A stretch of 64,000 bases of DNA from the IMG/VR virus record IMGVR_UViG_3300049571_000258, positions 70,186-134,185 of that record. One strand, written 5' to 3'. Positions 450-53,503 of the stretch are shown in pieces; within the stretch, counting starts at the first letter, position 1; every line of letters starts with the position of its first letter. The stretch is from a virus (Duplodnaviria > Heunggongvirae > Uroviricota > Caudoviricetes). A program made the position numbers and the translations under genes. The notes below the pieces were generated by a model. It ran no database searches and was not told the origin of the DNA. It saw only the letters and a list, made by a program, of their open reading frames with translations.

Positions 450-673
450 TGGTCGACGGCGTTAATCCCGCTGACCTGATCCCGGCTGAGGCTGTCTACC
501 TCACGGATGGCAAGCGCCTTGTCGAGGTGCTGCTACACGAGGAGGACGGCGACGTACGCGTGCACGACTGCCGCGACGCCGATGGGGCGACGTTCTTCCT
601 GATCCAGAGGTCCGAGATGAAGAAGTGGAAGCCGGTCATCCCGGCACGGGAGGCTGTTGATGGCACGGCGTAG
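449..673 (+). CDS. hypothetical protein
   Basis: ATG at 449 overlaps the TGA of the previous gene; in-frame tail of ORF 128..673; good GC3. Confidence 0.45.
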   Translation: MVDGVNPADLIPAEAVYLTDGKRLVEVLLHEEDGDVRVHDCRDADGATFFLIQRSEMKKWKPVIPAREAVDGTA

Positions 674-2729
674 CGGCGGCCTGGTGGGGCGCCTACAGGA
701 GGCCGTCGAGTCGGCCACGGGGATGACGCTGGCTGACCGCAACCAGCTGGAGATCCTGGAGGCAACCTACCGCGACCATCGCACGCTGTCGCGCGACCTG
801 GAGCTTCTGGGCTGGAACGTGCTCGACTACATGTCGGGCAACCCGCAGGAGTTGGACGCCAAGACGCGCCGCGAGTGGGCGCAGAAGGCGCGCAACGTGT
901 GGCTCCAGGACCCGCAGGCGGGCGCCGCCGTCGACCTGATGAACGACTTCGTCTTCGGCCGCGGCGTGCCCAAGCCGCGCGCGAAGGACGAGGACGTCCA
1001 GGAGGTCATCGACGAGGCCTGGGACGACCCCGACAACCGGCTGATCCTCACGAGCTACGAGGCGCAGTGCGCGCTGGGCACAGACCTGTCGCTCCAGTCC
1101 AACCTGTTCCTCCTCATGTTCGAGGCCGAGGACGGCAAGGTCAAGCTCGGCATCCTCAACCACGACGAGGTCGAGAACGTCGTCCGCGACCCGGACTTCC
1201 GCCAGCGCGTCCTCTACTACACCGCGCGCCACCGTCGCCAGGAGTGGGACTTCGAGCACGACCGACCGAAGGTCGACATGGCGAACCTCGACCAGCTGAA
1301 GGTCACCTACTACGAGCACTGGTGCAACGTCGAGCAGGCCGAGGAGGAGGACGCCGACGTCCCGAAGGCCCCGAAGTCGCGCGTCGGCGACGGCAGGGTC
1401 TACCACATCGCGATCAACCGCACCTCGGAGATGGCGTTCGGCGTTCCGACGATGCGGCGCCTGCTGCGCTGGTACTCGGCCTACAACGACTTCATGGCTG
1501 CGCGCGTCGACATGGCGCAGGCGGCGGCGGCGTTCATCATGCGCCGCAAGATCAAGGGCACGTCCAACCAGGTCGCGAGGATGGCGGCCAAGGCGATCTC
1601 GCGCAACTCGGAGTTGGCGGGCTTCACCGGCACTGGCGACTCCCCACCGCAGATGCCCCCGCGCGGCGGCTCGATCCTCACCGAGAACGAGAACGTCTCG
1701 CACGAGAACCTGTCGCTGAACTCCAACGCGGGCGCCGCGGCGCAGGACGCGCAGATGATCCGGGCGAACATCTCGGCGGGCACACGCTTCCCGCAGTCCT
1801 ACTACGGCGACGCCTCCAACTCGAACCTGGCGACAGCGACGTCGCTAGAGCTTCCGGTGCTCAAGGCGGTCGAGGCGCGCCAGGAGGTCTTCGAGGGCGT
1901 CTTCCGGTGGTTCCTGGACCGCGTCATCGAGAACGCCGTCGACTCGGGGCGCATCTCGAAGATGAAGGCCAACGACAAGAAGGAGGGCGAGGGCGGCGGC
2001 GACGACACCGGTCCGTACGGGCCTCCGGCGCTAGAGGATCCCACCGCCGACCTGGAGCAGGCCTACGAGGAGCAGGGCGACGACGAGGACATGGTCGAGC
2101 GCGACTTGGGCTACGACCTCTCGATGCCGTCGCCGCTGAAGCGCACCGCGACGGACCTGTCGACGATCATCTCGACGACGGCCAAGACGTTCGACCCCAA
2201 CGGGACGAACATGGAACTGTCGCGCATGCTGCTCACGATCCTGTTGGGCGAGGCGCTGGAGATCGACGACCCGGCGGGCGCCGTCGAGAAGATCTTCCCG
2301 GAGGGCTACGAGGACCCGATGATGGCGCAGGCGATGGGCGGCGCGGGCGGCTTCGCGCAGGACCCGTCCTTCCCGCAGGCGCCCCCACCACCCCCGACGC
2401 CGCCGGGCGCGCCGGGTGCACCGGAGGCGCAGAACCCGTATGGCGCGCCGGGCATGTCCTCGAACTACCAGAAGAACCAGGGCCAGATCCAGCAGGCGGT
2501 GTTCGTGCCGTCGGGCCGCTTCGGGCAGCCGCTCGTGGCGCCGCGCGAGCCGAACGACGGCGACGTCATCCGCGCGCTCATCGAGGCGCGCCTGTCGGAG
2601 ACGCAGCAGGTCGGCGTCCGCAACCACATCACCGAGGACGAGCAGGCCTTCGAGGAGGAGATCCTGCCCGTCGTCACCGATGTCCTCGCCACCGAGTTGC
2701 ACAGGACATTCCCGGCAGACGCTGACTAG
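657..2729 (+). CDS. phage portal protein (SPP1 gp6-like)
   Basis: 690 aa, the size and composition of a portal; acidic Pro/Gly-rich C-terminus; immediately followed by a MuF-domain gene, the canonical portal-MuF order. Confidence 0.75.
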   Translation: MMARRSGGLVGRLQEAVESATGMTLADRNQLEILEATYRDHRTLSRDLELLGWNVLDYMSGNPQELDAKTRREWAQKARNVWLQDPQAGAAVDLMNDFVFGRGVPKPRAKDEDVQEVIDEAWDDPDNRLILTSYEAQCALGTDLSLQSNLFLLMFEAEDGKVKLGILNHDEVENVVRDPDFRQRVLYYTARHRRQEWDFEHDRPKVDMANLDQLKVTYYEHWCNVEQAEEEDADVPKAPKSRVGDGRVYHIAINRTSEMAFGVPTMRRLLRWYSAYNDFMAARVDMAQAAAAFIMRRKIKGTSNQVARMAAKAISRNSELAGFTGTGDSPPQMPPRGGSILTENENVSHENLSLNSNAGAAAQDAQMIRANISAGTRFPQSYYGDASNSNLATATSLELPVLKAVEARQEVFEGVFRWFLDRVIENAVDSGRISKMKANDKKEGEGGGDDTGPYGPPALEDPTADLEQAYEEQGDDEDMVERDLGYDLSMPSPLKRTATDLSTIISTTAKTFDPNGTNMELSRMLLTILLGEALEIDDPAGAVEKIFPEGYEDPMMAQAMGGAGGFAQDPSFPQAPPPPPTPPGAPGAPEAQNPYGAPGMSSNYQKNQGQIQQAVFVPSGRFGQPLVAPREPNDGDVIRALIEARLSETQQVGVRNHITEDEQAFEEEILPVVTDVLATELHRTFPADAD

Positions 2730-2746: not shown

Positions 2747-5700
2747 GTGCCGACGAAGCGCGCACAGCGTCCGACGGGCGCCTCACGCATCATCGCCGCG
2801 TTCGGCCGGTACTACAAGCGGTCACGCGCAGGCGCGTCTCGGCGCGTCCTGGCGCTCCTGAGGCGCGAGCACCCTGAGCAGTCTCCCGCCGCCCTGCGAG
2901 CGCTGTTGGCGCGTGAGCAGGTCTACGAGGCGGAGTTCCAGCGCAAGATGACGGCGCGTCTGGAACGCGACATCCCGGGGATCCTGGCTCACGACGACCC
3001 GGATCACCGCAACCAGGCGATCGCTGACGTGCTCGCACGCGAGCGTCGGTTCGTCCAGATGCGCGAGCAGGCGATGGCCGAGCGCGCACTGGCCGCCGCC
3101 GAGATCGTGACCCTAGAGAAGATCTCGCCGCAGGGCGCGTTCTGGACGCTCTCGCCAGACGTCCAGAACCACACGCTGGACTGCCTGGCGATGGCCAACC
3201 AGTTCTGGCCCTACGAGGTGCTGCACAACATCCACCCACCACTGCACGTCGGGTGCCAGTGCCGCCTGATCCCGCTGCGCGACGCGATCGCACAGGGCCT
3301 CATGCGCGCCGACCAGATCCCCGACGCCCGCGACGCCGTCGTTCGTGCGCAGGCGGCTATCAAGGCGGCGCAGTCACTGGAGGAGGCCGACGCCAAGGCG
3401 CTGATCGAGGCGGCTTTCGATGATCGCCTGCATCCCCGCGGGCGTGACGGCCGGTTCATCCGCAAGTTCTCCAACCTGATCCACACGAAGCCTCCGGCGC
3501 AGAGCAACGGCGGGCGCTGGACGTGGGTCGCCGGGCATCGCGTCTTCGTGCCGGAGGGCCGCACCTTCCAGCGCACGTTCGGCGGGCGGACGTACGTCTC
3601 TCCGGCGCAGTCGACGAACATCTACGCCGACGGCAAGCTCGTGCCCCCCTCGCGACGCTTCGCCCCATTGACGATGCCGGACGGCAAGCTGGACACCGGC
3701 ACGATCGAGCGCATCCGCTCGGAGGTCGGCGACTTCGCCAAGCCTCCGACGTCGGAGCCGAAGCCGGGTGGTCAGCTGATCGACCACACGTGGGCGAACT
3801 GGGGCGAGTTCCAGCAGGAGACCAACGCGCTGTCGGCTGCACTGGGGCGCGAGTTCCACGTCGATGCGCAGCAGGGCAACGTCGACTTCGACACGAGGAT
3901 GTTCGACCACGCCGGGGCCACGGACTACAGCGGCAACACGACCTTCGGCCCCGACGTCTTCAACACGATCGAGAAGGAAGCGACGCGCCCGACCACGGGC
4001 CTGCCGCCGACCGATCAGGAGTTGGCCGACATCTACAACACGTACCGCGTGCAGGCGCACGAGGTCTCCCATCGAGTCAACTGGGCCAATCACCACGCGT
4101 ACTCGATGCCCGGCGGAGCGGTGCTAGAGGAGGCGCTGTCAGAGGAGGTCGCGCATGCGCTGCTGAAGGCCAACCTCCAGCGCCACGGTCGCGAGGACGT
4201 GTTGCGCTGGGGCGAGCAGCACCCGAACGCTGACGAGGTGCTGGGCACGTACCGCGCCTACCGGCTGGCCCTGAAGACGGCCCTGGACCAGATGGGCGTA
4301 CCGGAGCGCGACCGCATCCCGATCCTGTTCAAGTTGAAGTTCCAGACCGACCCGGAGGATCGTCTCAACGAGATGGTCCGCATCGGGCGCGGCTACCTCG
4401 GCGATGCGGCCCCCGACCTTGACGACCTGCGCGAGACCCTGGACCGCAGCGACTACGACGCGGCGAAGTACCGCTCGATCATTCCGGGCGACACGGGCCT
4501 ACCGGACCCCGGGACGCCGCTGACCGAGCGCTCGCTGGTCACCTCGATGCTCGACGGCGCGCAGCTGCTCTCGCGGCAGCACGCCAACGCGTCGGTCCAC
4601 TTCTCCGGCGTCGACTGGGCGTCACCGGAGATCGAGTACCCCTTCAACGCGCGCTACTTCCCCGGGCGCGGGCGCGTGGAGACCGGCGCGGGGATCTACC
4701 CGGCGATCAAGCGTGCATGGGAGGCCGACCACGGCGGCCCACCGCTGTCTGACGACGAGGCGCGCGATGGGTGGATGGCGCTGGCCAACCTCCAGCACGA
4801 GTTCCAGCATGCGGTCAACCCGACGCCCCAGCTTCAGTACGGCCAGGGTTGGAAGCGCGTCCTGGAGGAGGGCATCAACGAGGAGATCGCTCGGCAGGAG
4901 GCGGTTGCGACGGCGCGGCGCTTGGGCATGCACTCGGTCGTCGGCTGGGCGGAGCGCAACCGCGACGACTTCGCCGTGGCTGGCACCTACCAGTCCTACC
5001 GCCAGGCGGTGCGCCAGGTGCTGGAGGACGCCAAGGTGCCCAAGGAGAACTGGCGCGACCTGCTGTACCGGATGAAGTTCGAGATGACGCAGGACGAGCG
5101 CATGGCGCTGCTGCGCGATCACATGGCCAAGGCCAACGGCTGGGGGCCGGACTATGCGCGCGACCTGACGGCGCTGGCGCTCTCGCGCGGCGACCACCCG
5201 CGCGAACTCAAGATCGACGACTTCGAGCCGATGTTGGGCTGGCCGGAGTCGATCGTCCGGCCGCCGAAGCGCGTGGGTAAGGCCGACCCCGGCACGAAGC
5301 CGCTGGGCGGGAGGCTGACGCCGGAGACCGAGGAGACGTTGAGCAACCCGTCGTGGAGCTTCGAGATCGACCACACGCGCCGCAACGCCTACTACGGGGA
5401 CACGCACGTGCTGCGCGTCGCGCCGCGGTCGACGCCGGGCACGCGCCGCGTCGGCTCCGGCGACGTGTTCACCTACGACACGAAGGTGGCCGACGTCTCG
5501 ATCGAGGACGGTCGCCCGACTCCGGCCTTCAAGGGCGGCGACGGCTGGTCGCTGGATCTGCCCGACGAGCCGCAGCGGGGCATCGTGTTCCGGGGCATGT
5601 CCCACGGCGAGATGGAGACGCTGCGCAAGACCGGGCAGATCCACTCTCGCGGGCGCTTCAACCTCGGTGAGTCGCAGGTCGGTCTGACCTTCTACTCGAC

Positions 5701-6943
5701 GCAGCCCGACGAGGCCGTGGCCTACGCGGGCAACTACGCGCCGTGGCAGTTCCGCCCGACCTTCGATCGCCCAGCCTACCTGGTCGGTGTTCGTCGCCCT
5801 CCGGCGGAGCGCACCCGTCAGACACCCGGCTCGCCCTTCGAGGTCGGCGTGGAGGGCGCGATCCCCGCGTCCGACATCGTCTCGGTGACCGAGGTGCGCC
5901 CGTACGCGATCTCGGACGGCAGGGTGACCGCGGCGCCGGGCACCGAGTACGGGCTGGACACCTCCGACTACGTCATCGGCGGGGCCAAGGCGCCCCGCAC
6001 GTACCTGGCCTACCGGTCGCTGACGCCTTCCGACGTGCTGGAGGAGGCCTACCTAGAGTCCCAGCACCCGCGCTCGCGCACGGGCCAGTGGAAGCAGAAG
6101 AATCAGGGGCACCCGGCGAAGCCGCGCAGGCGCAAGAAGCGCACGGCGCCGAGGGGTCGAGACGGCGGCGCCATCACGCTGACGCCTTCGACGCCAGCCA
6201 CACCCAAGCTGCCGGAGGTCCACCTCCCATCGCTGGCGCCCGAGGTTGCGGCGATCGACGGGCCGGAGGCAATGGACGCCTATCTGGCGTCGTTGGGGAT
6301 CGAGGGCCGCATGTCGCCGACGGAGGGCATCTCGTGGGGTCCGTACTCCGCGGAGTGGTACCAGGAGATCGCACAGGCGGTGCACGACGCCGTTGCCGAG
6401 TTTCCGGTGCTGCGTGAGGGGCCTGTGCCCCTTGGGCTGATCTCGCTGCGCTCGAAGGCCGACGACATCTCGCTGTCGGACGTCTCGCGCGCGAAGGGCA
6501 TCTATGCGGTGACGACGTTCGCGCCCGCCCGCGGCCAGGTTGGCATCGTCTTCAACGACTTGACGGCCCAGTTGAACCAGAGGCACAGCGGGCAGGGCGT
6601 GAGTCCGGCGGGCGTGCTCGACTATGGCTTGGTGATGCACGAGCTTGGCCACGCGGTCGCGGACGCATCGGGCCTGTCGTGGGCGATGGGCAAGGAGGAT
6701 GTCAGCGCGTACGGCACGCGTCTGGCGTCGGCCCTCGATGCGGTGGGCCTGACACCGGATGTTGTCGGCCAGCTGTCGGAGTATGGTGCGACGTCGCCGG
6801 TGGAGGCGTGGGCCGAGATCTTCTCGACGTTGCACACGCCGGGCGCGATGGAGCGGGTGGAGGAGACGAATCCAACCCTCGCCGGGATGCTGCGTAGGCT
6901 TCAGGCAGAGCATGGCACCTACAACGGGTATCGAGTCCTGTGA
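2747..6943 (+). CDS. MuF-domain minor head protein with giant C-terminal extension ending in an HExxH zincin-like domain
   Basis: GTG start. N-terminal ~190 aa ends with the MuF signature ...HVGCQCRL. Carries a LHPRGRDGRF peptide. Internal RG...STQ...E stretch. C-terminus is HELGHAV...EAWAEIF (HExxH plus downstream Glu). Confidence 0.85.
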   Translation: MPTKRAQRPTGASRIIAAFGRYYKRSRAGASRRVLALLRREHPEQSPAALRALLAREQVYEAEFQRKMTARLERDIPGILAHDDPDHRNQAIADVLARERRFVQMREQAMAERALAAAEIVTLEKISPQGAFWTLSPDVQNHTLDCLAMANQFWPYEVLHNIHPPLHVGCQCRLIPLRDAIAQGLMRADQIPDARDAVVRAQAAIKAAQSLEEADAKALIEAAFDDRLHPRGRDGRFIRKFSNLIHTKPPAQSNGGRWTWVAGHRVFVPEGRTFQRTFGGRTYVSPAQSTNIYADGKLVPPSRRFAPLTMPDGKLDTGTIERIRSEVGDFAKPPTSEPKPGGQLIDHTWANWGEFQQETNALSAALGREFHVDAQQGNVDFDTRMFDHAGATDYSGNTTFGPDVFNTIEKEATRPTTGLPPTDQELADIYNTYRVQAHEVSHRVNWANHHAYSMPGGAVLEEALSEEVAHALLKANLQRHGREDVLRWGEQHPNADEVLGTYRAYRLALKTALDQMGVPERDRIPILFKLKFQTDPEDRLNEMVRIGRGYLGDAAPDLDDLRETLDRSDYDAAKYRSIIPGDTGLPDPGTPLTERSLVTSMLDGAQLLSRQHANASVHFSGVDWASPEIEYPFNARYFPGRGRVETGAGIYPAIKRAWEADHGGPPLSDDEARDGWMALANLQHEFQHAVNPTPQLQYGQGWKRVLEEGINEEIARQEAVATARRLGMHSVVGWAERNRDDFAVAGTYQSYRQAVRQVLEDAKVPKENWRDLLYRMKFEMTQDERMALLRDHMAKANGWGPDYARDLTALALSRGDHPRELKIDDFEPMLGWPESIVRPPKRVGKADPGTKPLGGRLTPETEETLSNPSWSFEIDHTRRNAYYGDTHVLRVAPRSTPGTRRVGSGDVFTYDTKVADVSIEDGRPTPAFKGGDGWSLDLPDEPQRGIVFRGMSHGEMETLRKTGQIHSRGRFNLGESQVGLTFYSTQPDEAVAYAGNYAPWQFRPTFDRPAYLVGVRRPPAERTRQTPGSPFEVGVEGAIPASDIVSVTEVRPYAISDGRVTAAPGTEYGLDTSDYVIGGAKAPRTYLAYRSLTPSDVLEEAYLESQHPRSRTGQWKQKNQGHPAKPRRRKKRTAPRGRDGGAITLTPSTPATPKLPEVHLPSLAPEVAAIDGPEAMDAYLASLGIEGRMSPTEGISWGPYSAEWYQEIAQAVHDAVAEFPVLREGPVPLGLISLRSKADDISLSDVSRAKGIYAVTTFAPARGQVGIVFNDLTAQLNQRHSGQGVSPAGVLDYGLVMHELGHAVADASGLSWAMGKEDVSAYGTRLASALDAVGLTPDVVGQLSEYGATSPVEAWAEIFSTLHTPGAMERVEETNPTLAGMLRRLQAEHGTYNGYRVL

Positions 6944-8178
6944 CGACGATCATTGACCCAGCCCTGATCGAACAGGCGAAGCGCGACGCGCGCGAGCGCG
7001 GGCAGACGGGGACGACCTGGGTGCCCGAGCCACTGCCGGGGGTACTCCAGGAGGCCTTCGTGGAGCGTCTGCACCCGCGCGATCGCCTGGGTCGCTGGAT
7101 CGACAAGCCGGGTGAGAAGCGGCCGACGCGGCTCATGTGGGATCTCGCCGCGTCGCTCGAAAAGACCTTCATGACGGGCAGGTTGAACACGGTGAGGGCG
7201 CGCAATGACGACGGCGAGATCGAGACGTTCGAGCACGTCTCGATTGACCCCCCGAGCGGCGCGGCGCTGGCCAAGGTTTGGGGTACCTACGTCAAGGACG
7301 GGCAGGTGCTGAAGACCGGCTGGGACATCGACGAGATCGTCGACCTGACGCCCGAGGAGTCCAAGTCCAAGAGGCCGTCCATCGCCGACATCAAGTTCTC
7401 GCCGGAGGTGCAGAAGATCGCGACCGCGGAGGACGCGAATCGCTATCTGCGTAAGCTGGGCCTGGAGGATGCCGACCTGCGTCCCGGGGATCGCGCCCTG
7501 TCTGACCCATCGCCGTCGTTTTACCGGGGGGTGGTGCAGGCGGTGGCAGACGTCGCCGAGAAGTTCCCGGCGCTCCTCAACGGCAGGTACACCAAGCTGG
7601 GCGGCGTCCGGCTGACGTCGCAGTTCCCGGAGGACAAGCTCGACTCGGGGATCGAGCAGGCGTGGGCGGTCACCGGCCCGCTGCCATCCGATCGCTGGCG
7701 CTGGGACATGGTCGACTACGACCTAGAGGCCGACGGGGAACCACCGCTGCCGCCCGAGGCGATGCAGTACGTCGTCATCAACGACACGGTCCAGACCCAG
7801 TACGGCTTCGACAACGACGACGTCGACATGGCGCGGGGTGCGTCTGGACTTGCGGTCGCCGACCGCACGGTCTATGGGCGCACGGTGCACGAGCTTGGTC
7901 ATGCGCTCGCCTGGGCGTCGGGCCAGGACCCGGAGAACTCAGATGACGAGGCTTGGGGTGGGACGGAGCAGGCTCTCAACGAGGCGCGAGTCCCGATGAG
8001 CGGCATGGCGAAGATCTCCGGCTATGGCACCTCGAATGTGGTCGAGGCGTGGGCCGAGATCTTCACGACGCTCCACACGCCCGGTGCCTACGATTGGGTG
8101 GTGGAGCACGCGCCGGAAACCAAGAAGCCGCTGGACCGCCTGCGCGGGCACAAGTACAAGGGCCAGGTGATCATGTGA
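6940..8178 (+). CDS. HPRDR-motif / HExxH zincin-like protein, paralog 2
   Basis: ERLHPRDRLGRWIDKPG near the N-terminus; C-terminal HELGHALAW...VEAWAEIFTTLHTPGA is alignable to the C-terminus of 2747..6943. Confidence 0.8.
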   Translation: MTTIIDPALIEQAKRDARERGQTGTTWVPEPLPGVLQEAFVERLHPRDRLGRWIDKPGEKRPTRLMWDLAASLEKTFMTGRLNTVRARNDDGEIETFEHVSIDPPSGAALAKVWGTYVKDGQVLKTGWDIDEIVDLTPEESKSKRPSIADIKFSPEVQKIATAEDANRYLRKLGLEDADLRPGDRALSDPSPSFYRGVVQAVADVAEKFPALLNGRYTKLGGVRLTSQFPEDKLDSGIEQAWAVTGPLPSDRWRWDMVDYDLEADGEPPLPPEAMQYVVINDTVQTQYGFDNDDVDMARGASGLAVADRTVYGRTVHELGHALAWASGQDPENSDDEAWGGTEQALNEARVPMSGMAKISGYGTSNVVEAWAEIFTTLHTPGAYDWVVEHAPETKKPLDRLRGHKYKGQVIM

Positions 8179-9230
8179 CCCTGCCGATCAGCGAGGAGCA
8201 GCTGGCGCGTGCGCTGGAGCAGGCGCGCGAGAACGTCGCGCGCGGGTCGTTCCCGAAGGTCAAGAAGTCGCAGCTGCGCGAGTCCTTCGCCGAGCGCCTA
8301 CATCCGCGCGATCGGCTGGGCCGGTTCATCGACAAGCCGAACTTCGATCGCTACGAGACGATCGGCGACATGCTGGCGAAGACCGACTGGCACCAGTACA
8401 TGCCGACGAAGTTCGACCCCGACGTGGAGGCGATCAACTCGCCCGAAGACGCGACAAGGTTCCTTCAGGGTCTCGGCTTCCAGAAGTCCAGCATGACGCC
8501 GCCGGAGGGCTACGACACCCCGTCGGCGCACTGGTATCGCGAGGTCGCACAGGCGGTCAAGGACGCGTCGACGAAGTTCCCGGCGCTCAAGAACGGGGAG
8601 CATCCCCTGGCGGGTGTTGTGATCTTCGACCCCGACCTGATTGATCCTGACGAGTTCGACGACGACGCGCGCGGGGGTGTGTGGGCGTTCACGGGCAGCG
8701 ATCCAGCGGAAGGCCACGTCACCGTGGATAGGGTGAGGGATGGCACATCGGGCCTGTTCGTCGGAATCAACCCGGACGGCGAACCCTATAAGCGGGAGAT
8801 GGACGTCTCCAGCTTCGCGGCCCCGGCGGGCGGTTCGATCTACGGGCGCATGATGCACGAGATGGGCCACGCCGTCTCGCAGGCAAACGGCTTCTCGTTC
8901 GACGAGAAGATCATGCCTCAGGTCTTCAACGGGGTGCCCGAGTTTCGTGAGGGGTACGCCAACATCCTGCGCGACTACGAGTTCAGCCTCACCGACCCGG
9001 AGATCGCAATGTTCACGCTGGCCGACATCCGCCCGTCGGAGTTGGCGGCGGTGTCGAACTACTCGCAGAAGAACCCGGCCGAGGCGTTCGCGGAACTCTT
9101 CACGACCATGAACACGCCACACGGTGCCGACTTCCTCGACCCATCCCTACGCGACCACCTCTTCAAGGCGCGGGACGCGATCAATGCCGCCTGGGAGCGT
9201 CTGCGGCCCGGCAAGGGGGATCTGCTGTGA
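8175..9230 (+). CDS. HPRDR-motif / HExxH zincin-like protein, paralog 3
   Basis: GTG at 8175 in an ATGTGA overlap; ERLHPRDRLGRFIDKPN; C-terminal HEMGHAVSQ...AEAFAELFTTMNTP. Confidence 0.8.
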   Translation: MTLPISEEQLARALEQARENVARGSFPKVKKSQLRESFAERLHPRDRLGRFIDKPNFDRYETIGDMLAKTDWHQYMPTKFDPDVEAINSPEDATRFLQGLGFQKSSMTPPEGYDTPSAHWYREVAQAVKDASTKFPALKNGEHPLAGVVIFDPDLIDPDEFDDDARGGVWAFTGSDPAEGHVTVDRVRDGTSGLFVGINPDGEPYKREMDVSSFAAPAGGSIYGRMMHEMGHAVSQANGFSFDEKIMPQVFNGVPEFREGYANILRDYEFSLTDPEIAMFTLADIRPSELAAVSNYSQKNPAEAFAELFTTMNTPHGADFLDPSLRDHLFKARDAINAAWERLRPGKGDLL

Positions 9231-10294
9231 CCTGGTACAAGCCGAAGACCCCGTTCGAGGTCGCGCCCGATTGGATGTCGTTCCGCGGCAAGACGAAGCG
9301 CCTGCCCGACTTCCCTCATCTCGAAGATGTCCAGGAGGCCTTCGTCGAGCGCCTGCATCCCCGCAATCGTCTCGGCCGGTTCGTCGACAAGCCCGACGTG
9401 CTGGACGTGACCGCGACGCAGTCGACCGGCGCGGCGCACGGGGACCTCACCTTCAAGTACGACGACGACATCGCGAAGATCCACGACGCCAGCACCGCCT
9501 TTCGCGCGCTGATCGACATGGGTCTACCAGCGTCCGACCTGCGCCTCCCCGACGAGGTCGCCCGCGACCGGGGTGAGTCGAGCGACTACTACTGGCCCGC
9601 GCAGCAGCCCGACCCGGACTGGTATCGCCAGATCGTCCAGGCGGTGCGCGATGCGCAGCGCAGGTACCCCGTCCTCAAGGACGGCCCGCGGCCCTTCCGG
9701 GGCGTCATCGTGGCGCAGCCAGAGGACCCGGGTATGGAGACTTTCCGGCGGGCTGGCGATACCACCTGGGCGGTGACCGGACCCGATCCGCACGCCAACG
9801 AGATCGTGGGCTTCGGCCGGGCGGATCGCAACAAGCACGATCCGATCTACGTCACGATCAACCCCGGCGCCGTCGCGCTCGACGCGGCCATGGGCGGCGC
9901 GGGCGACCTGATGCCATCGTCGCGCACGTCGATCTACGGCCGCATGATGCACGAACTCGGACACGCCGTCTCGCAGTCGTCGGGGTTTCTGCTCGGCGAA
10001 GCCGATGGCGAATGGGGCGGTCCGCTGAAGGGGCGTGTCCCCTTCCAGTGGGGCATGCCCGAGATCGAGATGCTGAGCCACACCGACCTCACGCTCGACG
10101 ACGTCGCAGCGATGTCGAAGTATGGCGCCTCGAACGTCGCCGAGGCGTGGGCCGAGACCTTCTCGATGCTCAACACGCCGGGCGCGATGGAGCGCGTCAC
10201 CGACCCGACGATCAAGCAGCACATGCTCGACGCACGCGATACGATCAACAGGCTATGGCAGACAAGGCACCCAGGAACCGGCCCCCTGATGTGA
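9227..10294 (+). CDS. HPRDR-motif / HExxH zincin-like protein, paralog 4
   Basis: GTG in a GTGA overlap; ERLHPRNRLGRFVDKPD; C-terminal HELGHAVSQ...AEAWAETFSMLNTPGAMERV. Confidence 0.8.
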   Translation: MTWYKPKTPFEVAPDWMSFRGKTKRLPDFPHLEDVQEAFVERLHPRNRLGRFVDKPDVLDVTATQSTGAAHGDLTFKYDDDIAKIHDASTAFRALIDMGLPASDLRLPDEVARDRGESSDYYWPAQQPDPDWYRQIVQAVRDAQRRYPVLKDGPRPFRGVIVAQPEDPGMETFRRAGDTTWAVTGPDPHANEIVGFGRADRNKHDPIYVTINPGAVALDAAMGGAGDLMPSSRTSIYGRMMHELGHAVSQSSGFLLGEADGEWGGPLKGRVPFQWGMPEIEMLSHTDLTLDDVAAMSKYGASNVAEAWAETFSMLNTPGAMERVTDPTIKQHMLDARDTINRLWQTRHPGTGPLM

Positions 10295-10419
10295 TCCCCG
10301 CGTGGCCCGAGCGGGCGCGCGAGAACATCGAGCGCGGCGAGTGGGTTCCGTACGAGGGCGAGATCTGGCCGCCCGAGGCCGACCCCCGCACCGAGAAGAC
10401 CGACAAGCCTTCCCTGTAG
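10291..10419 (+). CDS. small hypothetical protein (42 aa)
   Basis: GTG in an ATGTGA overlap; good GC3; no recognisable motif. Confidence 0.3.
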   Translation: MIPAWPERARENIERGEWVPYEGEIWPPEADPRTEKTDKPSL

Positions 10420-10520: not shown

Positions 10521-10593
10521 GGGGACGTAGCTCAGAGGCCAGAGCAGGACTCTCTTAAAGTCACGCGCGTGGGTTCGACTCCCACCGTCCCCA
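10521..10593 (+). tRNA. tRNA-Lys: tRNA-Lys (CTT)
   Basis: Hand-folded cloverleaf: acceptor ggggacg/cgtcccc, D gctc/gagc, anticodon loop ctCTTaa, T-arm gtggg-ttcgact-cccac. Confidence 0.7.
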
Positions 10594-10607
10594 CCTCGTA
10601 GTACCCC

Positions 10608-40260: not shown

Positions 40261-41814
40261 GTGGCCACCGGCACAGCTAACGCGCTGCGTGACGAGATCG
40301 AGAACGCCGCACAGGATGAGTCCATCGACCCGTCCGCGCGCCTGCGCATGCTCTCCGCGCTTCGCGGCGACCTCGTGTCTGTGCTCGGAGCGTGCGACCA
40401 GTACATCGGCGCGCTAGAGCGCCACGCACAGTCCCTCGCCGCGGCGCAGCGCGAGAACGTGGAGATCGCGCGCCGGTTCGCCTCGCTGCGCGAGGGCATG
40501 ATCGAGGAGGGTGTCGCGACGGGCGACGAACTCGATCTCGTGGGCATCCTCTCCGAGGCCGAGCTAGACCAGCTGGAGGAGGAGGGCCTGCTCCTGGAGG
40601 CCGTTGGATACCTGCGCAAGAAGTGGGATGAGGCGCTGCACCCGCGTGGTCGTGGCGGCCAGTTCGTTGCCAAGCCGGGGGCGCCCGAGGCGCCGAAGAT
40701 CCGCAAGTCCACCTACGGCACCGACTACCAGGCGGTCGGGCCGGGCGGCGAGATCGCGGTTCGTGGCACGCGCAAGGAGGCCGAGGACGCGCTGAAGGGG
40801 ATCCGCTCGACGCAAGTCAAGCGCGATCCGGGCACGGGCAAGGGCGACACGGGCACGAAGCCTTATCAGGACCCGACCACCACCGAACTGCTCACGGACC
40901 CGGAGACGGTGCGCGAGGCGCGCAAGATGATCCTGTCCGGCAACCCGACTACGCGTGACCGCTACGCCACGGTGAAGGACGGGAAGGTCGTCTACGACAG
41001 GTCTCGCCAGAAGCTGCACAAGGAGATCATCGAGAAGTTGCTCACCGAGGACGGCGAGCACCAGGCGCAGGAGCATCCGGTGGCGTTCTTCACCGGCGGC
41101 GGAATGGCCAGCGGCAAGGGTGGCGTCGTGGACGCCATGAACGGCGGCAAGGGTCACGAGTGGAAGCCGCAGGACGCCGTCACGATCGACCCCGACAAGG
41201 TCAAGGCGCTGATGCCCGAGTTCGCGCAGCTGACCAACGCGGGCGACCCGGAGGCCAACATTCGCGTCTCTGATGAGGCGTGGGACATCTCGCAGGCGCT
41301 GGCCGCGGAGGTCCGCAAGCGCAAGTACAACGTGATCGTGGACGGCGTCGGCAACACATCGGCCGACATGGTGAGGAAGCGCGTCGACTCCTACGTGAGC
41401 GCCGGGTACACCCCACGCGCGGTGTATGTTGCGACGCCCGCGCCGGTCGCGGTCCGCAACGCGCGGATGCGCATGCAGAAGGCGATCAAGGCCGGGAAGC
41501 TGGAGTCGATCCGCTACATCCCCGACGAGATCATGTACGACACGCACGCGCGCGTGTCGAAGGTGTTCCCCGACATCTTGAAGATGTGGCCCGGCGAGAT
41601 CGAGTTGTACGACACGAACACGTGGGATGAGGAGAAGAAGGTCTTCCACACCCCGCGCCTGCTGTTGAAGAAGTCGGGCAAGGGGGAGGAGCCGGAGATC
41701 TTGGACAACGACACCTACGAGAAGTTCCTGGAGAAGGCGCGCAACCCGTACGTCGAGTGGTTCGTGCCTCCGCCGGAGGGTTCTGACGACGAGGGTTCGG
41801 AGGTCGCGGTCTGA
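40261..41814 (+). CDS. HPR-motif protein with degenerate P-loop kinase-like domain (zeta-toxin / polynucleotide-kinase-like)
   Basis: WDEALHPRGRGGQFVAKPG peptide; FFTGGGMASGKGGV (Walker-A-like GxxxxGKG); ...IVDGVGNT...R....GY...VYVATP...R...R, as in the zeta/UNAG-kinase fold. GTG at 40261 preceded by TAGACT. Confidence 0.55.
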   Translation: MATGTANALRDEIENAAQDESIDPSARLRMLSALRGDLVSVLGACDQYIGALERHAQSLAAAQRENVEIARRFASLREGMIEEGVATGDELDLVGILSEAELDQLEEEGLLLEAVGYLRKKWDEALHPRGRGGQFVAKPGAPEAPKIRKSTYGTDYQAVGPGGEIAVRGTRKEAEDALKGIRSTQVKRDPGTGKGDTGTKPYQDPTTTELLTDPETVREARKMILSGNPTTRDRYATVKDGKVVYDRSRQKLHKEIIEKLLTEDGEHQAQEHPVAFFTGGGMASGKGGVVDAMNGGKGHEWKPQDAVTIDPDKVKALMPEFAQLTNAGDPEANIRVSDEAWDISQALAAEVRKRKYNVIVDGVGNTSADMVRKRVDSYVSAGYTPRAVYVATPAPVAVRNARMRMQKAIKAGKLESIRYIPDEIMYDTHARVSKVFPDILKMWPGEIELYDTNTWDEEKKVFHTPRLLLKKSGKGEEPEILDNDTYEKFLEKARNPYVEWFVPPPEGSDDEGSEVAV

Positions 41815-50020: not shown

Positions 50021-53000
50021 ATGCCTGGGGCCTCCATTCGCCTACGCCACGACGCGGGTGCCACCGGCACGGGGCTTGTCGTCGCCGAAGGCCTCCTCCT
50101 CACGCTCACCGACCCGCGCTCGAAGAAGCAGCACATCACTCGCGCGGCCGACACGGCACGCCAGCTGCTGAGTCTCGACGAAGCAGACACGACGAAGGTC
50201 GCGCGCGCCCTGGCGGAGCACATCGAGAAGATCCGCCCGGCGGTCCAGGAGGCGGCCACGATGCCGTCGATCTCGGTCAAGAAGGGCGGGGGCCAGGTCG
50301 GCGCCGCAACCGGCGCACAGGGCGCGCAGGTGCGCATGGAGACCAAGTCGAAGGCCAAGCCGAAGACGCGCGGTGGCGTGGCGGGCGAGGTCGGCGCGAA
50401 GGGCGCGCCAGCGGCCAGCAACCCCAACTTCGAGAAGCTGCACCCACGCGATCGCACCGGCCGGTGGGTCAAGGCGGGCGACGGCTACGATCAGCCCAAC
50501 CCGACGGTCTCGCAGCTTCAGCGTCGCCTGGCGCAGCTGGGCTACGGTCCCGGCGCGCCGGACGGCAAGTTCGGCCCGTTGACACAGCAGGCGCTCGCCA
50601 AGTTCCAGGCCGACTACGGCCTCCAGGGCGACGGTTCGCACGTCGACCCCGCTACGCTCCAGGTGCTCCAGAACCCTCCGGCGCAGAAGCTGCGCCAGAT
50701 CCAGGCCGAGCAGCAGGCGCTGGCCAACGTGCCGGACGCCAACGGCAAGGTGGCTGGCGCCACCGGCGGATCTACTGGCGGTACGGGTAGCAGCACTAGC
50801 GCGGGTGCCAGCGGGTCGGCCACGACGACGCTGGATACCACCGATCCCGAGGCGGTCAAGAAGTTCCAGCAGGCGCACGGCCTGAAGCCGGACGGCGTCG
50901 TCGGCCCCAACACCGAGGCACTGATGAAGGGGCTTGGCGTCCACCCCAAGGGCGACTACGTCAACCCGGACGGCACGGTGACGAGCGTCGATCACGCGGC
51001 CGAGGAGAGGGACAATGCGAAGAAGGACTCCTCCAAGTCGTCGTCCTCCTCGTCGGGCACTGGCAGCGCCAGCGGCAGCGCGAGCGGGGCGGCGTCGAAG
51101 GGCGCGAACTCCGAGACGCTGGCGCCGGGTGACGGGCTGAAGGAGCCGAGCGCCGACGTCAAGGCGCTTCAGCAGGTGCTCGACGCGCTGGGCTATGACC
51201 TGGGTGAGAGCGGCATCGACGGCCGCTACGGCAGCGATACCGAGAAGGCGATCCGCAAGCTCCAGAAGCGCTACGGCCTGAAGGTCGACGGTGTTGCCGG
51301 ACCGCGCACGATGCGCCTGCTCAAGCGGCTGGGCGAGCAGGCCAAGAAGAAGGCCAAGGACGACGACATCAAGTCGGGTGACGAGGTCACCGAGGCGCAG
51401 ATCGTCGCGGCGGTCGAGAAGCGCAAGCTGGCCGAGGCCGCGGGCGACGTGGACGCGTTCATTGCGGCGCGCGCCGCGGAGGTTCACCTGCGCGAGAACT
51501 TCATCGAGCGCCTGCATCCACGTGACCGACTGGGCAAGTTCGCGGACGTGCCGGGTGGCTCGAAGGGTTCCTCGTTCAAGTACGGCCCCGGCGACCGGGT
51601 CGTCATCGAGCCTGCGACGAGGCACTACGGCGACCGGGTGCACCCTGGTCGGGTCCACGATCGCTACGTCGACAAGTTCGGCGGGCGCTGGTACACGGTC
51701 GCGACCGGCAACGGCAACGAGGATGTGCTGGAGGATCAGCTGCGCAGGCCTTCCGAGCGCGAGGGTGTGAAGATGGACCCGGGCACGGGGTCGAAGCCGA
51801 AGAAGTCGCGCATCATCCTCACCGACGAGGATCGCGCGTTCCCCGAGACGGCGATGTGGCCCGAGGCGATCGCCGAGCGTCGCCGGGCGCAGGGCAAGCG
51901 GAGGTTCGGCATGAGGTCTGTTCTGGATCGGCTCACCGAGGCGGCAGAGATCCGTGAGTCCGCGACGCCGGGCACGCCCGAGCACATCGAGGCGCGTGCC
52001 CGTGAGGTCGAACTGGCTCGCCAGGTCATGGAGGAGGGCGTGCTGAACGCCGCGGCGCGCAAGGCGTCGGCGACGGTCGTGCGCCAGAAGGGCGGCAAGA
52101 CCGAGTACAAGTTCCCGATCCCCGACAAGGCGCACGCGAAGGCGGCGCTGGCCTACCTGAACTCCAGCGACCTGACGCCCGAGGAGAAGGCGAAGGTGCG
52201 CGCGCGGGCGATGGCGGTGCTGGCCGAGGCGCGGCGCGCCGAGCGCGAGGCGGAGATGGTCGCGGCGCTCGACGAGGCCGAGGTGCTGATGATCGCCGAG
52301 GCGGTGGACTCCCTGCGCAAGGCGTCCACGCACAAGCACGGGCTGGAGTCCAAGAAGGGGCCGAACGACAACTGGATCGAGCGCTCCAGCGCCGACGGGC
52401 GTGGCCAGCTGCCCGCCTACATTCAGCACATCGCACTGGCGCTCGTGCGCAAGCGCGGGATGCCGAAGTCACGCGCGATCGCCATCGCGATCGGCACGGT
52501 CAAGCGCTGGGCGCGCGGTGGCGGCGACGTGGACGCCAACACGCGTGCGGCGGCGGCCAAGGCGGTCGCCGAGTGGGAGGCGCTGAAGGCCAAGAACAAG
52601 GCCAAGAAGGTCACCGAGGCGTGGGACTCCGACTTGATCGACACGGTGTTCGAGTGCGGCCTGATGGAGGCCGACACGAAGGCCGACTACGACGACATGA
52701 CCTGCACGGCGCACGGGCGCAAGAAGTGCAAGTCCTGCCTGATGGAGGCGGTGTTCGAGGATCGCCTGCACCCGCGCAACCGCTTCGGTCGGTTCATCCA
52801 CAGCTTCGGCGGGCGCCGCAACGGCGGCGGTGCTATGGATGGGTTCGTGCACAACGGCAAGCGGGAGCGGATCGACAGCCGCATCGGCGACGGCGGGTCC
52901 TTCGAGGCGCGTACGCGGCGCACGCAGCGCTACGCCGAGCACATGGCTCGCGTGCCCGAGACGCCGCAGGAGCGGGGCCAGCGCGAGGCGGATGAGCGCT

Positions 53001-53503
53001 ATCAGGCCGCGCTGCTGGGCAAGCGCGACCCCGGCACAGCGTCGCCGCAGGCGGTGCAGCGAGTCGCCTACAGCGCCTTCACCGGCGAACCAGCCGAACG
53101 TCGAGCGTCCTTCGATGCGATGGACCTGATGACCAACGATCAGCTGAACACGCTCGACGACACGAACCTCATCACGATCCACACGGCCACCCTGCCCGGC
53201 GGGGAGCGCGGCGCCTATTCGTCGCTGCACAGCCGCGTGGCGCAGATCCTCAAGGGTCGCGACAGCGATCAGGCCTCGCGCTACATGCGTGGGCTGAACA
53301 TCTTCGAGTCGTTGACCGACGCGGCGCTGGCGTTGCGCGAGTCCTGGACGCCGACGTTCGAGGCGCGCCCGTACGTGGACGCGCTGGCCGAGGGCGTGAC
53401 CGACGCTGTGATCGTGCGCGCGCTGCTGAGCGCGATGGGGCAGGCGAGCGGCCCCGACGTCGCGAAGGTCCGCCGCACGCTGCGCGCCCACCTGGAGGGC
53501 TAG
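50021..53503 (+). CDS. very large (1160 aa) protein with three peptidoglycan-binding (PG_binding_1-like) repeats and three HPRDR peptide motifs
   Basis: PG-binding repeats LQRRLAQLGYGPGAPDGKFGPLTQQALAKFQ, VKKFQQAHGLKPDGVVGPNTEALMKGLG and LQKRYGLKVDGVAGPRTMRLLKRLG; motifs FEKLHPRDRTGRW, FIERLHPRDRLGKF and FEDRLHPRNRFGRF; Ser/Gly-rich linkers. N-terminal start uncertain. Confidence 0.65.
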   Translation: MPGASIRLRHDAGATGTGLVVAEGLLLTLTDPRSKKQHITRAADTARQLLSLDEADTTKVARALAEHIEKIRPAVQEAATMPSISVKKGGGQVGAATGAQGAQVRMETKSKAKPKTRGGVAGEVGAKGAPAASNPNFEKLHPRDRTGRWVKAGDGYDQPNPTVSQLQRRLAQLGYGPGAPDGKFGPLTQQALAKFQADYGLQGDGSHVDPATLQVLQNPPAQKLRQIQAEQQALANVPDANGKVAGATGGSTGGTGSSTSAGASGSATTTLDTTDPEAVKKFQQAHGLKPDGVVGPNTEALMKGLGVHPKGDYVNPDGTVTSVDHAAEERDNAKKDSSKSSSSSSGTGSASGSASGAASKGANSETLAPGDGLKEPSADVKALQQVLDALGYDLGESGIDGRYGSDTEKAIRKLQKRYGLKVDGVAGPRTMRLLKRLGEQAKKKAKDDDIKSGDEVTEAQIVAAVEKRKLAEAAGDVDAFIAARAAEVHLRENFIERLHPRDRLGKFADVPGGSKGSSFKYGPGDRVVIEPATRHYGDRVHPGRVHDRYVDKFGGRWYTVATGNGNEDVLEDQLRRPSEREGVKMDPGTGSKPKKSRIILTDEDRAFPETAMWPEAIAERRRAQGKRRFGMRSVLDRLTEAAEIRESATPGTPEHIEARAREVELARQVMEEGVLNAAARKASATVVRQKGGKTEYKFPIPDKAHAKAALAYLNSSDLTPEEKAKVRARAMAVLAEARRAEREAEMVAALDEAEVLMIAEAVDSLRKASTHKHGLESKKGPNDNWIERSSADGRGQLPAYIQHIALALVRKRGMPKSRAIAIAIGTVKRWARGGGDVDANTRAAAAKAVAEWEALKAKNKAKKVTEAWDSDLIDTVFECGLMEADTKADYDDMTCTAHGRKKCKSCLMEAVFEDRLHPRNRFGRFIHSFGGRRNGGGAMDGFVHNGKRERIDSRIGDGGSFEARTRRTQRYAEHMARVPETPQERGQREADERYQAALLGKRDPGTASPQAVQRVAYSAFTGEPAERRASFDAMDLMTNDQLNTLDDTNLITIHTATLPGGERGAYSSLHSRVAQILKGRDSDQASRYMRGLNIFESLTDAALALRESWTPTFEARPYVDALAEGVTDAVIVRALLSAMGQASGPDVAKVRRTLRAHLEG

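Follow-up and report, generated by a model that had tools for sequence, protein, structure and literature searches.

Tandem lethal-factor-like zincin modules and a recurrent peptide tag behind the portal gene of a tailed phage

Polyvalent proteins are thought to enter the cell alongside phage or plasmid DNA, where their own zincin domains split them into separate weapons. The zincin metallopeptidase (MPTase) is the commonest domain of such proteins, with autoprocessing as a predicted activity (Iyer et al. 2017, PMC5512222), and HHpred comparisons in that paper grouped it with lethal factor (PDB 4dv8). The MPTase region is needed for encapsidation in the case of the N4 vRNAP, or for processing in the case of P1 DdrB (PMC5512222). 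Among the MuF polymorphic toxins that temperate phages encode, metallopeptidase tips are also common, at 20% (Jamet et al. 2017, PMC5576092). Neither a mapped cleavage site nor a described packaging signal for polyvalent proteins was found in the literature searched. Zincin-bearing polyvalent proteins are already known, and the locus described here differs from the known kind by a tandem array of solo proteases and by a conserved peptide tag. Tandem solo copies of a terminal protease were not found by a term search of PMC5512222 or by literature string searches, and neither was a conserved inter-domain tag.

The window, meaning the whole 64-kb stretch of DNA that was analysed, from an uncultivated high-GC tailed phage, contains terminase and portal genes directly upstream of a giant gene (g1). 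Three shorter genes (g2 to g4) follow, then tRNAs, and nuclease and replication genes also lie downstream of the array. The product of g1 starts with a MuF-like N-terminus, followed by a tag, two internal zincin-like domains, a segment resembling ADP-ribosyltransferases (ART), a second tag and a zincin domain resembling lethal factor (LF):

657..2729, plus strand: portal protein gene, directly 5' of g1 (phrog_10963 portal, E 3.7e-35)
2747..6943, plus strand: g1, polyvalent protein of 1398 aa
2804..3391, plus strand: putative MuF-like N-terminal domain of g1 (aa ~20-215), with HVGCQC at aa 167 (nt 3245-3262)
3398..3469, plus strand: first tag copy in g1 (ALIEAAFDDRLHPRGRDGRFIRKF; motif HMM E 3.5e-11)
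3800..4486, plus strand: internal zincin-like domain A1 of g1 (HEVSH at aa 438, nt 4058-4072)
4640..5230, plus strand: internal zincin-like domain A2 of g1, a repeat of A1 (HEFQH at aa 684, nt 4796-4810)
5555..5887, plus strand: ART-like segment of g1 (aa 937-1047), with FRGMS at 5588-5602 (aa 948), YSTQ at 5693-5704 (aa 983) and FEVGV at 5837-5851 (aa 1031)
6035..6094, plus strand: second tag copy in g1 (VLEEAYLESQHPRSRTGQWK; motif HMM E 1.1e-6), just 5' of the C-terminal protease
6230..6940, plus strand: predicted LF-like zinc metalloprotease domain of g1 (domain HMM E 1.8e-59), with HELGH at 6638-6652 and YGATSPVEAWAE at 6782-6817

The architecture of g1 is that of a polyvalent protein. Several unrelated domains are joined in one chain encoded among virion genes, and the cargo differs between homologs. 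Giant size, a MuF-type N-terminus, one to several zincins and the swapping of cargo (ART, NUDIX, 2H, zeta toxin, Rho_N) between relatives are shared with the proteins described by Iyer et al. No match to the Pfam polyvalent models (MPTase-PolyVal, ART-PolyVal, LPDs) was found for g1 to g4, and g1 has no match, whole or in pieces, in Pfam, PHROG or NCBIfam. Three relatives (P0001, P0002 and P0003) share the N-terminal domain of g1 and carry 2H/NUDIX, ART or other cargo, which bears out the view of swappable cargo on a portal-adjacent head protein. Across relatives, the cargo comprises 2H/NUDIX, ART, a CCA-adding enzyme, HicA, cytidylate kinase and GNAT. The original prediction correctly had g1 end in a zincin-like module and overlooked the two internal HExxH domains. 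In this domain, HExxH and a Glu 20 aa further on are invariant in five copies (alignment A6), and no PDB sequence match was found.

The proposed MuF identity of g1 can be upheld only tentatively. The gene adjoins the portal gene, an order from portal to polyvalent gene that recurs in three relatives (L001, L002 and L020), and the expected HVGCQC signature lies near the end of the domain. Five residues (H142, C146, H167, C170 and C172) are invariant in a 21-sequence alignment (A5). An AF2 model of the domain (pLDDT 90.4) retrieved mostly head-morphogenesis, minor capsid and MuF-like proteins among its top 50 BFVD Foldseek matches, all of them weak (E 0.03-0.5, probabilities up to 0.99, TM 0.2-0.5). 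Neither g1 nor its N-terminal 240 aa matched Pfam, including Phage_Mu_F, or PHROGs at E up to 10, and no head-morphogenesis or Phage_Mu_F (PF04233) match was found in the relatives scanned (8 with Pfam, 20 with PHROGs). Synteny and signature tentatively point to a divergent MuF-like domain. Anchoring of g1 in the head depends on this identity, which is matched by no profile HMM. In common with the MuF polymorphic toxins (PMC5576092), g1 has a MuF-like domain at its N-terminus and an enzymatic domain that varies between relatives at its C-terminus. MuF toxin loci consist of a toxin and an immunity gene (PMC5576092), whereas no cognate immunity gene lies directly downstream of the g1 tip, where paralogs of the tip and then tRNAs are found.

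The segment between the internal zincins and the second tag was suspected to carry the R-S-E pattern of ADP-ribosyltransferases. The motifs are present, and FRGMS, [YF]ST and E[VI]GV with the spacing R-35-S-48-E are kept in the one homolog found, aa ~1152-1262 of the "large polyvalent protein" of Planktothrix phage Pag-Yong1 (48% identity). Profile comparisons lend the assignment no support, with no Pfam match at E up to 10, no PDB profile match and a hhalign probability of 4.8% against two PF03496 domains.

The three genes following g1 are true paralogs of its C-terminus, as anticipated, with an N-terminal tag and overlapping gene ends:

6940..8178, plus strand: g2, 412 aa; leader, tag at 7042-7116, predicted LF-like zincin (HELGH 7888-7902; Y..E..AE 8023-8058)
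8175..9230, plus strand: g3, 351 aa; leader, tag at 8274-8342, predicted LF-like zincin (HEMGH 8856-8870; Y..E..AE 9060-9095)
9227..10294, plus strand: g4, 355 aa; leader, tag at 9323-9397, predicted LF-like zincin (HELGH 9950-9964; Y..E..AE 10121-10156)
10291..10419, plus strand: leader-only mini-ORF of 42 aa with a decayed tag (..DPRTEKTDKPSL), overlapping the g4 stop (GTGA)

The g1/g2, g2/g3 and g3/g4 junctions are three identical GTGA start/stop overlaps. A GC3 of 0.81-0.90 in g1 to g4 is as expected for real genes in a genome of 68% GC. The mini-ORF is also called by the Logan gene caller on L030. An alternative g3 start at 7953 was rejected, with an independent database gene call (P0006) being 100% identical from the GTG at 8175. 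In BLASTP comparisons, the g1 C-terminus matches g2, g3 and g4 at E 7e-19 to 1e-22, and g3 matches g4 at E 5e-52. Paralogy is therefore far beyond chance. The homology to the g1 C-terminus spans ~260-300 aa, so the C-termini align well beyond HExxH. Conservation had been placed in the last ~100 aa; it extends over the whole ~260-aa domain. Divergence among the paralogs is greatest in the loop that separates the HExxH helix from the SxY motif.

The zincin assignment of the C-terminal domain can be made more exact. HELGH or HEMGH and Y-x6-E-x-x-A-E (E-A-[WF]-A-E) are intact in all four copies, which thus contain the HExxH and downstream Glu ligand of gluzincins. H242, E243, H246, Y299, E306 and E310 (g4 numbering for Y299/E306/E310) are invariant in 51 family members. 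A PDB profile search matched the catalytic core of LF (E 1e-7 to 2e-6), and the fold resembles that of solved members of the LF and Pro-Pro endopeptidase (PPEP) family. HExxH and SYG..E..FAE align with LF, and a catalytic Tyr stands 7 residues before the Glu ligand, followed by the counterpart of E739; the Y/E/E spacing is identical to Y728/E735/E739 of LF, with g4 Y299/E306/E310 aligning to LF SYGRTNEAEFFAE (HMMER alignment). Judged by sequence and fold, the modules are gluzincins of the anthrax lethal factor/Pro-Pro endopeptidase (MEROPS M34-like) type, predicted to be catalytically competent. Pfam assigns 0 families to g1 to g4, including ATLF (PF07737), which matched only 2 of the 51 relatives (best E 3e-5). 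Because g1 to g4 fall below the ATLF threshold, we file them as LF-like rather than as PF07737 members. Sequence identity to LF and PPEP-1/2/3 (MEROPS M34) is only 11-13%. Unlike these, the array proteins are encoded by a phage and have neither a signal peptide nor a PA-binding domain. An additional helical part stands at their N-terminus, and their C-terminus follows the conserved pattern G-x-[KR]-hydrophobic-[LM].

Other phages keep the array as well. In L025, a MuF-polyvalent gene with the same C-terminal domain precedes three solo copies coupled by overlaps and a final 55-aa leader-only ORF, identity to the copies in the window being only 29-38%. Tandem copies also occur in L027 and L029. 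The LF-like copies cluster by lineage, suggesting repeated lineage-specific expansion. An array kept in other phages is not simply a local diversifying duplication. A main gene followed by modules that lack a delivery domain and keep a pre-domain motif also recalls the orphan C-terminal cassettes of CDI, Rhs and MuF loci. Genes g2 to g4 would then be a recombination reservoir for the g1 tip, with the shared tag as homology and demarcation motif, and tip swapping is indeed evident among relatives. We consider this very improbable. All cassettes have the same fold, with no immunity genes interleaved; each starts from its own codon within a GTGA overlap, has a leader that is kept from phage to phage, is high in GC3 and retains its catalytic residues; and the layout of one fused plus three solo copies is kept at ~30% identity. 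With proteins 34-40% identical, the underlying DNA differs too much to recombine by homology.

The tag has the consensus [FYW]-x-E-x-L-H-P-R-D-R-x-G-[RK]-[WF]-x-D-K and is ~20 residues long. A motif HMM found exactly 12 matches in seven plus-strand genes of the window (E 1e-14 to 9e-6), the next-best match having E above 2. The HPR peptide lies at aa 43-45 in g2 to g4 and at aa 229 and 1107 in g1. The HPRDRLGR(F/W) peptide is thus present in g2 to g4 as first noted, but it is not private to them, since it occurs twice in g1 and in three other window genes:

40261..41814, plus strand: zeta-toxin-domain protein (Pfam Zeta_toxin E 9e-25) with one tag at 40618-40686 (motif HMM E 1.5e-10)
50021..53503, plus strand: peptidoglycan-binding giant of 1160 aa; three PG_binding_1 repeats; three tags, from 50432, 51488 and 52739
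53504..55999, plus strand: 831-aa protein of no assigned family with three tags, from 53825, 54476 and 55301

Relatives contain ~160 tag copies, mostly between cargo domains or behind short N-terminal leaders, with up to eight per protein exactly between cargo domains. Cargo domains start 15-50 aa past a tag and have tags on both flanks. Tags at 386 and 493 enclose a HicA domain (418-473), tags at 1008 and 1273 enclose an ART domain (1061-1214), and a cytidylate kinase (316-509) comes after a tag at 298. The tag is a phage-wide and lineage-wide mark on large effector-like proteins. HExxH occurs in 22 of 36 tag-bearing proteins without an LF-like domain (shuffles, mean 3.2), although part of this enrichment may stem from MPTases being common in polyvalent proteins generally. 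Multi-domain giants of IMG/VR phages often have a single tag, placed 13-90 aa from their N-terminus, a pattern more in keeping with targeting than with separation of domains. The window-type LF-like domain was not found in the flanks examined of tag-bearing IMG/VR contigs, nor in IMG/VR. The fused copy of L025 and P0001 have no HPR tag, and P0001 has xSPGRR between domains. A tag of ~20 conserved residues is also longer than cleavage sites usually are.

The internal proteins and Alt of T4 are packed into the head and ejected with the DNA. A short N-terminal leader, their capsid-targeting sequence, directs packaging and is removed by the prohead protease. P1 DdrB and the N4 vRNAP are further proteins packed in the head and ejected (cited in PMC5512222). 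Compared with the T4 sequence, the tag is longer, bears no resemblance to it and recurs within proteins, and the candidate proteases here are zincins, whereas T4 uses a serine prohead protease.

We suggest, with a probability of roughly 45%, that g1 to g4 are LF-like zinc proteases within a polyvalent arsenal, delivered with the virion and acting on the tagged proteins at the tag. Genomic context points to packaging and ejection of g1 to g4, while their proteolytic activity and cleavage at the tag are predicted. The MuF-like domain of g1 would presumably anchor the protein in the capsid, with two zincin-like domains and the ART-like segment as cargo and the LF-like protease last. Genes g2 to g4 are translationally coupled solo copies of the last g1 unit, consisting of leader, tag and protease. 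With the tag as processing site, the zincins would act in cis as well as in trans, either within the head or once ejected, freeing cargo modules from the MuF anchor and removing the leaders of the solo proteases. A more specific version, in which the tag is a dedicated cleavage signal and giant virion-delivered proteins are cut into effectors by co-packaged LF-like or related zincins, is possible yet doubtful. It would resemble RNA-virus polyproteins cut by their own proteases, and the four paralogs would differ in when they act or in which subset of sites they serve.

Alternatively, the tag might be no cleavage site and instead direct packaging or ejection, for example by binding to the portal, MuF, scaffold or capsid interior, or by guiding proteins into the tail channel. 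The four proteases would then be host-directed effectors delivered with the DNA and diversified towards different host proteins, such as those of defence or the envelope. This seems unlikely, though by no means negligible. The single N-terminal tag on many IMG/VR giants, found directly 3' of the portal in L014 and L016, fits such a role, as do the retention of its own tag by each solo protein, the variable HExxH-SxY loop and the repeated expansion implied by lineage clustering. LF and PPEPs themselves are toxins or secreted proteases against foreign or surface proteins, and a fifth of MuF toxins end in a metallopeptidase (PMC5576092). However, up to eight tags exactly between cargo domains exceed what targeting needs, tags are strongly associated with zincins of several subtypes in the same polypeptide, and no host target can be named.

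The nearest viral fold match of the LF-like domain is gp8 of Mycobacterium phage Indlulamithi (MN585993, 646 aa; cluster AC; Foldseek E 3.4e-5; domain HMM E 8e-8). It consists of a MuF domain and a C-terminal HExxH zincin and, like g1, is encoded shortly after the portal. It differs in having the canonical MuF signature PHPHCRCY (GCICE..PHPHCRCY) in place of the HVGCQC of g1 (hhalign probability of the two MuF parts, 18.6%), and in being a single copy without solo paralogs, HPR tag or other cargo, in a standard head module with adjoining scaffold and capsid genes. The position of this MuF and zincin fusion between portal and scaffold/major capsid genes, and its UniProt name "capsid maturation protease", raise the question of whether the LF-like zincins replace the serine prohead protease in head maturation or scaffold processing. 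The array sits where a head protease is usually encoded, behind portal and MuF, and the window yielded no recognisable serine prohead protease. Such a role is nevertheless improbable: no major capsid or scaffold gene was found near the array in the window, which is part of the genome, and a canonical protease may lie outside it. The GenBank record now lists gp8 as hypothetical, the tags are on effector-like proteins rather than on a recognised capsid protein, and the four copies would be left unexplained.

The proteolysis and packaging hypotheses are directly testable with peptides and mass spectrometry. The locus provides a short peptide of high conservation that falls exactly between cargo domains, four small proteases with separate coding sequences and a well-understood fold, each suited to expression by itself, and a set of seven tagged candidate substrates in one genome. 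If the tag is a cleavage signal, it would supply the missing sites for the autoprocessing predicted in 2017; should it direct packaging or ejection instead, it could serve to load phage heads with foreign proteins. The locus further points to a little-explored group of large, high-GC phages rich in tRNAs. Among 50,697 isolated-phage records, sequence relatives of their lineage are almost absent, and matches were only to single cargo domains.

The number of protease copies deserves a remark of its own. Twelve sites that are nearly identical would need no more than one protease, which speaks against cleavage at the tag, and four diverged copies with lineage-specific expansions resemble arms-race effectors more.

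Four intact LF-like zincin units, resembling anthrax lethal factor (LF) and PPEP proteases (MEROPS M34-like), follow the portal gene. One is fused to a portal-adjacent polyvalent protein (g1), and three stand as solo paralogs of its last domain (g2 to g4). The window has ~68% GC and carries every gene on the plus strand, with the array laid out as follows:

657-2729, plus strand, portal gene (phrog_10963, E 3.7e-35)
2747-6943, plus strand, g1, 1398 aa, beginning 17 bases after the portal gene
6940-8178, plus strand, g2, 412 aa
8175-9230, plus strand, g3, 351 aa, GTG start
9227-10294, plus strand, g4, 355 aa
10291-10419, plus strand, leader-only ORF of 42 aa with a paralog-type leader and a decayed tag, in GTGA overlap with the g4 stop

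A GTGA start/stop overlap is found at all three junctions of g1 to g4, with each next gene in the -1 frame. Frameshift fusion of the four genes into a single polyprotein was rejected since the GTGA junctions contain no slippery sequence and every gene carries a conserved leader of its own. A g3 start at 7953 was also discarded, as the extension overlaps g2 and a gene call in the database (P0006) agrees at 100% identity from 8175 onward. The sole other contig for the window, L030 from the same phage (24.8-kb Logan contig), is 100% identical across 18.5 kb, with no differing sites and identical gene calls. Upstream of the portal, L030 encodes a GpA-type terminase containing an intein. The terminase large subunit (GpA_ATPase) and intein-splicing domain matches fall at 1-753 of L030, before the window start.

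The four C-termini are alignable as paralogs, as the original prediction had it (BLASTP E 7e-19 to 5e-52). The C-terminus of g1 matches g3 over 303 aa (E 1e-22), g4 (E 7e-22) and g2 (E 7e-19), and g4 is matched by g2 (E 2e-26) and g3 (E 5e-52). The original prediction placed strong conservation in the last ~100 aa, but homology extends over ~260-300 aa. Identity among the window copies is 34-40% (204 ungapped columns), and the motifs HE[LM]GH and Y-x6-E-A-[WF]-A-E are complete in all four. Pseudogenised duplication of g2 to g4 was rejected given intact catalytic residues and high GC3. It is also very improbable that g2 to g4 serve as a reservoir of orphan cassettes, as the leaders are conserved, the starts coupled and the copies deeply diverged.

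No model in Pfam, PHROG or NCBIfam matches g1 to g4 or six pieces of g1. Word-indexed protein searches gave only 3, 2 and 0 matches; finding the family took an exhaustive HMM search. Among 1.84 billion representatives, this search recovered 183 relatives of the LF-like domain at E <= 1e-3, including 27 at E <= 1e-30, either as solo proteins of 250-520 aa or as domains within giants of up to 4972 aa. Among 51 aligned solo-type members, H242, E243, H246, Y299, E306 and E310 (g4 numbering) are invariant. The profile of these members matches the LF catalytic core in the PDB (2l0r at E 1e-7; 1j7n and 4dv8 at ~2e-6), which bears out the proposal of a C-terminal zincin module. HExxH and SYG..E..FAE align in the match to LF, and the Y/E/E spacing therefore equals that of LF Y728/E735/E739. 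On sequence grounds, the shared domain is predicted to be an LF/PPEP-like (M34-like) zinc metalloprotease whose active site is complete. The Pfam family ATLF is reached by 2 of the 51 relatives; the window proteins fall below its threshold, and we therefore use the term LF-like for them without assigning them to the ATLF family. Searching 50,697 phage records by megablast and tblastn with the region, g4, the 23-aa tag peptide and the domain consensus matched the ART-like segment of g1 alone. No relatives turned up in IMG/VR, GTDB genomes or JGI metagenomes when these were scanned with conserved domain peptides.

The LF-like domain is mostly C-terminal in giants. Solo proteins and giants of up to 4972 aa share a conserved C-terminal tail, G-x-[KR]-hydrophobic-[LM] (G-x-[KR]-[VILF]-[LMI]-COOH), located in the window at 6920-6940, 8155-8175, 9207-9227 and 10271-10291. 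The start/stop overlap does not explain the tail, which could act as a product-like autoinhibitory or docking tail.

A conserved peptide of ~20 residues, the HPR tag, marks the LF-like units and other effector-like proteins. The window contains exactly 12 copies, all in plus-strand genes, found by regular expression and then with an HMM built from relatives (E 1e-14 to 9e-6; next-best score in the window at E above 2):

g1, two tags; g2, g3 and g4, one tag each
40261-41814, plus strand, Zeta-toxin protein, one tag
50021-53503, plus strand, 1160-aa protein with three PG_binding_1 repeats, three tags
53504-55999, plus strand, 831-aa protein with no family match, three tags

The latter three proteins look like additional tagged effectors that are possibly ejected. 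Across 160 distinct instances in relatives from the HMM search, the tag reads L-x-E-[EA]-A-[FYW]-x-E-x-L-H-P-R-[DG]-R-x-G-[RKQ]-[WF]-x-D-K-x-G. Solo LF-like proteins carry it at aa 12-135. The first tag of MuF-type giants is ~60 aa past the HxxCxC signature, and later tags flank cargo domains, as in the following relatives (aa positions):

418-473, HicA, between tags at 386 and 493
1061-1214, ART, between tags at 1008 and 1273
316-509, cytidylate kinase, after a tag at 298
starting at 397, PolyA_pol, after a tag at 381

In one IMG/VR contig (L005), the tag alternates with another zincin subtype, and HExxH occurs in 22 of the 36 tag-bearing proteins without an LF-like domain, where shuffles expect 3.2. 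We favor the reading in which the tag would be the processing site of the zincins, because it sits precisely between cargo modules, one protein can have as many as eight copies, and zincins of several subtypes accompany it. We place the probability of this whole model at roughly 0.45, slightly short of even odds. A codon-pattern scan of IMG/VR yielded 22 further tag contigs (GC 50-72%), in which giants of 700 to over 2200 aa typically carry the tag 13-90 aa from their N-terminus. Four of the six IMG/VR giants scanned had Pfam matches, comprising Rho_N, PI3/PI4-kinase-like, Zeta-toxin and DUF6900 domains. Such single N-terminal tags, together with lineage-specific expansions, favor the main rival explanation, in which the tag would signal packaging or ejection and the proteases would be host-directed effectors. 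We consider this rather unlikely, while still a serious contender. P0001, a relative of g1, is without the HPR tag; xSPGRR stands six times between its domains, along with two looser SPGxR variants, a hint that a sister lineage uses another punctuation motif.

Polyvalent proteins, MuF-metallopeptidase fusions and LF-like MPTases are already known. Apparently undescribed so far are the tandem array of solo proteases, the leader-only ORF at its end and, most notably, the conserved inter-domain tag; no account of the tag turned up in the literature searched, string searches included. For polyvalent proteins, whose processing or packaging is predicted but unmapped, the locus now offers a simple peptide-and-protease experiment.

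Only three proteins in a word-indexed collection of 5.8 billion resemble g1. P0001, P0002 and P0003 are 40-43% identical to it over the N-terminal ~200 aa, and portal homologs lie upstream of their genes. P0001 (2057 aa; 1492-7665 of contig L001) also has the internal HExxH domain of the g1 type and a C-terminal LF-like domain. The cargo of P0002 consists of 2H phosphoesterase and NUDIX domains, and P0003 ends in an ADP-ribosyltransferase. Polyvalent proteins as described by Iyer et al. 2017 (PMC5512222) share this architecture; their most frequent domain is the zincin MPTase, for which cleavage of the protein into parts is predicted. The literature search on virion proteomics of polyvalent proteins was unproductive. 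Within g1, a second zincin-like domain occurs twice:

3800-4486, plus strand, copy 1, HEVSH at aa 438
4640-5230, plus strand, copy 2, HEFQH at aa 684

Both copies have an invariant Glu 20 residues after HExxH. The domain is also found in P0001, P0002 and the relative contig L025, and has neither a Pfam match nor a PDB sequence relative by profile search. Separately, a short conserved module GRWTWVAGHRVFVPEGRTFQRTFGGRTYVSPAQSTNIY after the first tag (3494-3646; g1 aa ~250-300) is also present in P0002, P0003 and L025.

The N-terminus of g1 had been called MuF. Portal synteny, the Cys/His signature and the Foldseek list speak for this assignment, and the lack of Pfam and PHROG matches speaks against it. 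Pfam Phage_Mu_F and the PHROG head-morphogenesis families give no match in g1 as a whole, in its N-terminal 240 aa or in the relatives scanned (8 for Pfam, 20 for PHROG), and the profile of the region matches nothing in the PDB. H142, C146, H167, C170 and C172 are invariant across 21 relatives. The AF2 model of the N-terminus (pLDDT 90.4) retrieves mostly "phage head morphogenesis", "minor capsid" and "MuF-like" proteins among the best 50 BFVD Foldseek matches, all at E >= 0.03. An hhalign comparison with the canonical MuF part of gp8 of Mycobacterium phage Indlulamithi (formerly named "capsid maturation protease") gave 18.6% probability with the right register. We treat the N-terminus as a divergent MuF-like domain of unproven membership. 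From this domain, portal synteny and the polyvalent and MuF literature, we infer packaging and delivery of the proteins. Gene position would also suit a maturation-protease role of the LF-like zincins, as would Indlulamithi gp8, a MuF and zincin fusion lying between portal and scaffold/capsid genes. We regard such a role as improbable; a literature search on metalloprotease capsid-maturation proteases was unproductive.

The ART-like segment of g1 (aa 937-1047) has 48% identity to an unannotated segment of a 2772-aa "large polyvalent protein" of Planktothrix phage Pag-Yong1, with FRGMS, [YF]ST and E[VI]GV kept. A jackhmmer search of all fetched sequences gave no second homolog, and neither Pfam nor PDB profile searches provided significant support. 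Comparison by hhalign with two PF03496 domains was not significant at 4.8%, with the FRG motifs aligned.

The array arrangement is conserved in other phages. In L025 (GC 0.71), the LF-like domain is at the end of a MuF-type polyvalent protein at least 1643 aa long, after which come three overlap-coupled solo paralogs (506, 363 and 361 aa), each with leader and tag. A leader-only ORF of 55 aa (8617-8784) ends this array as well; such terminal ORFs could be duplication relics or small functional peptides. More tandem copies are present in two further contigs (L027 and L029). Identity is 49-55% among the L025 copies and 29-38% between L025 and window copies. A neighbor-joining tree unites the L025 copies with P0017 in a 100% clade and places g3 and g4 with P0008 and P0011 (91%), the branches to g2 and to the g1 copy being deep. 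The arrays therefore stem from repeated expansion as well as old duplication.

Among the larger window ORFs scanned, a part of all ORFs, no capsid, tail or prohead-protease genes were recognized. Genes in mid-window encode transposase-like (44773-45699; phrog_4285), ParB-like (47536-48465), UvsX-like recombinase (34786-35775) and primase (38528-39874) proteins. The window also contains 20 tRNA genes in three clusters (10521-10752, directly after the protease array; 12847-16871; 46037-46980), with a Ro60/TROVE protein carrying a vWA domain amid them (16969-18735; Pfam E 2e-32 and 4e-54). The tRNA clusters suggest that the phage is large and supplements translation with genes of its own.
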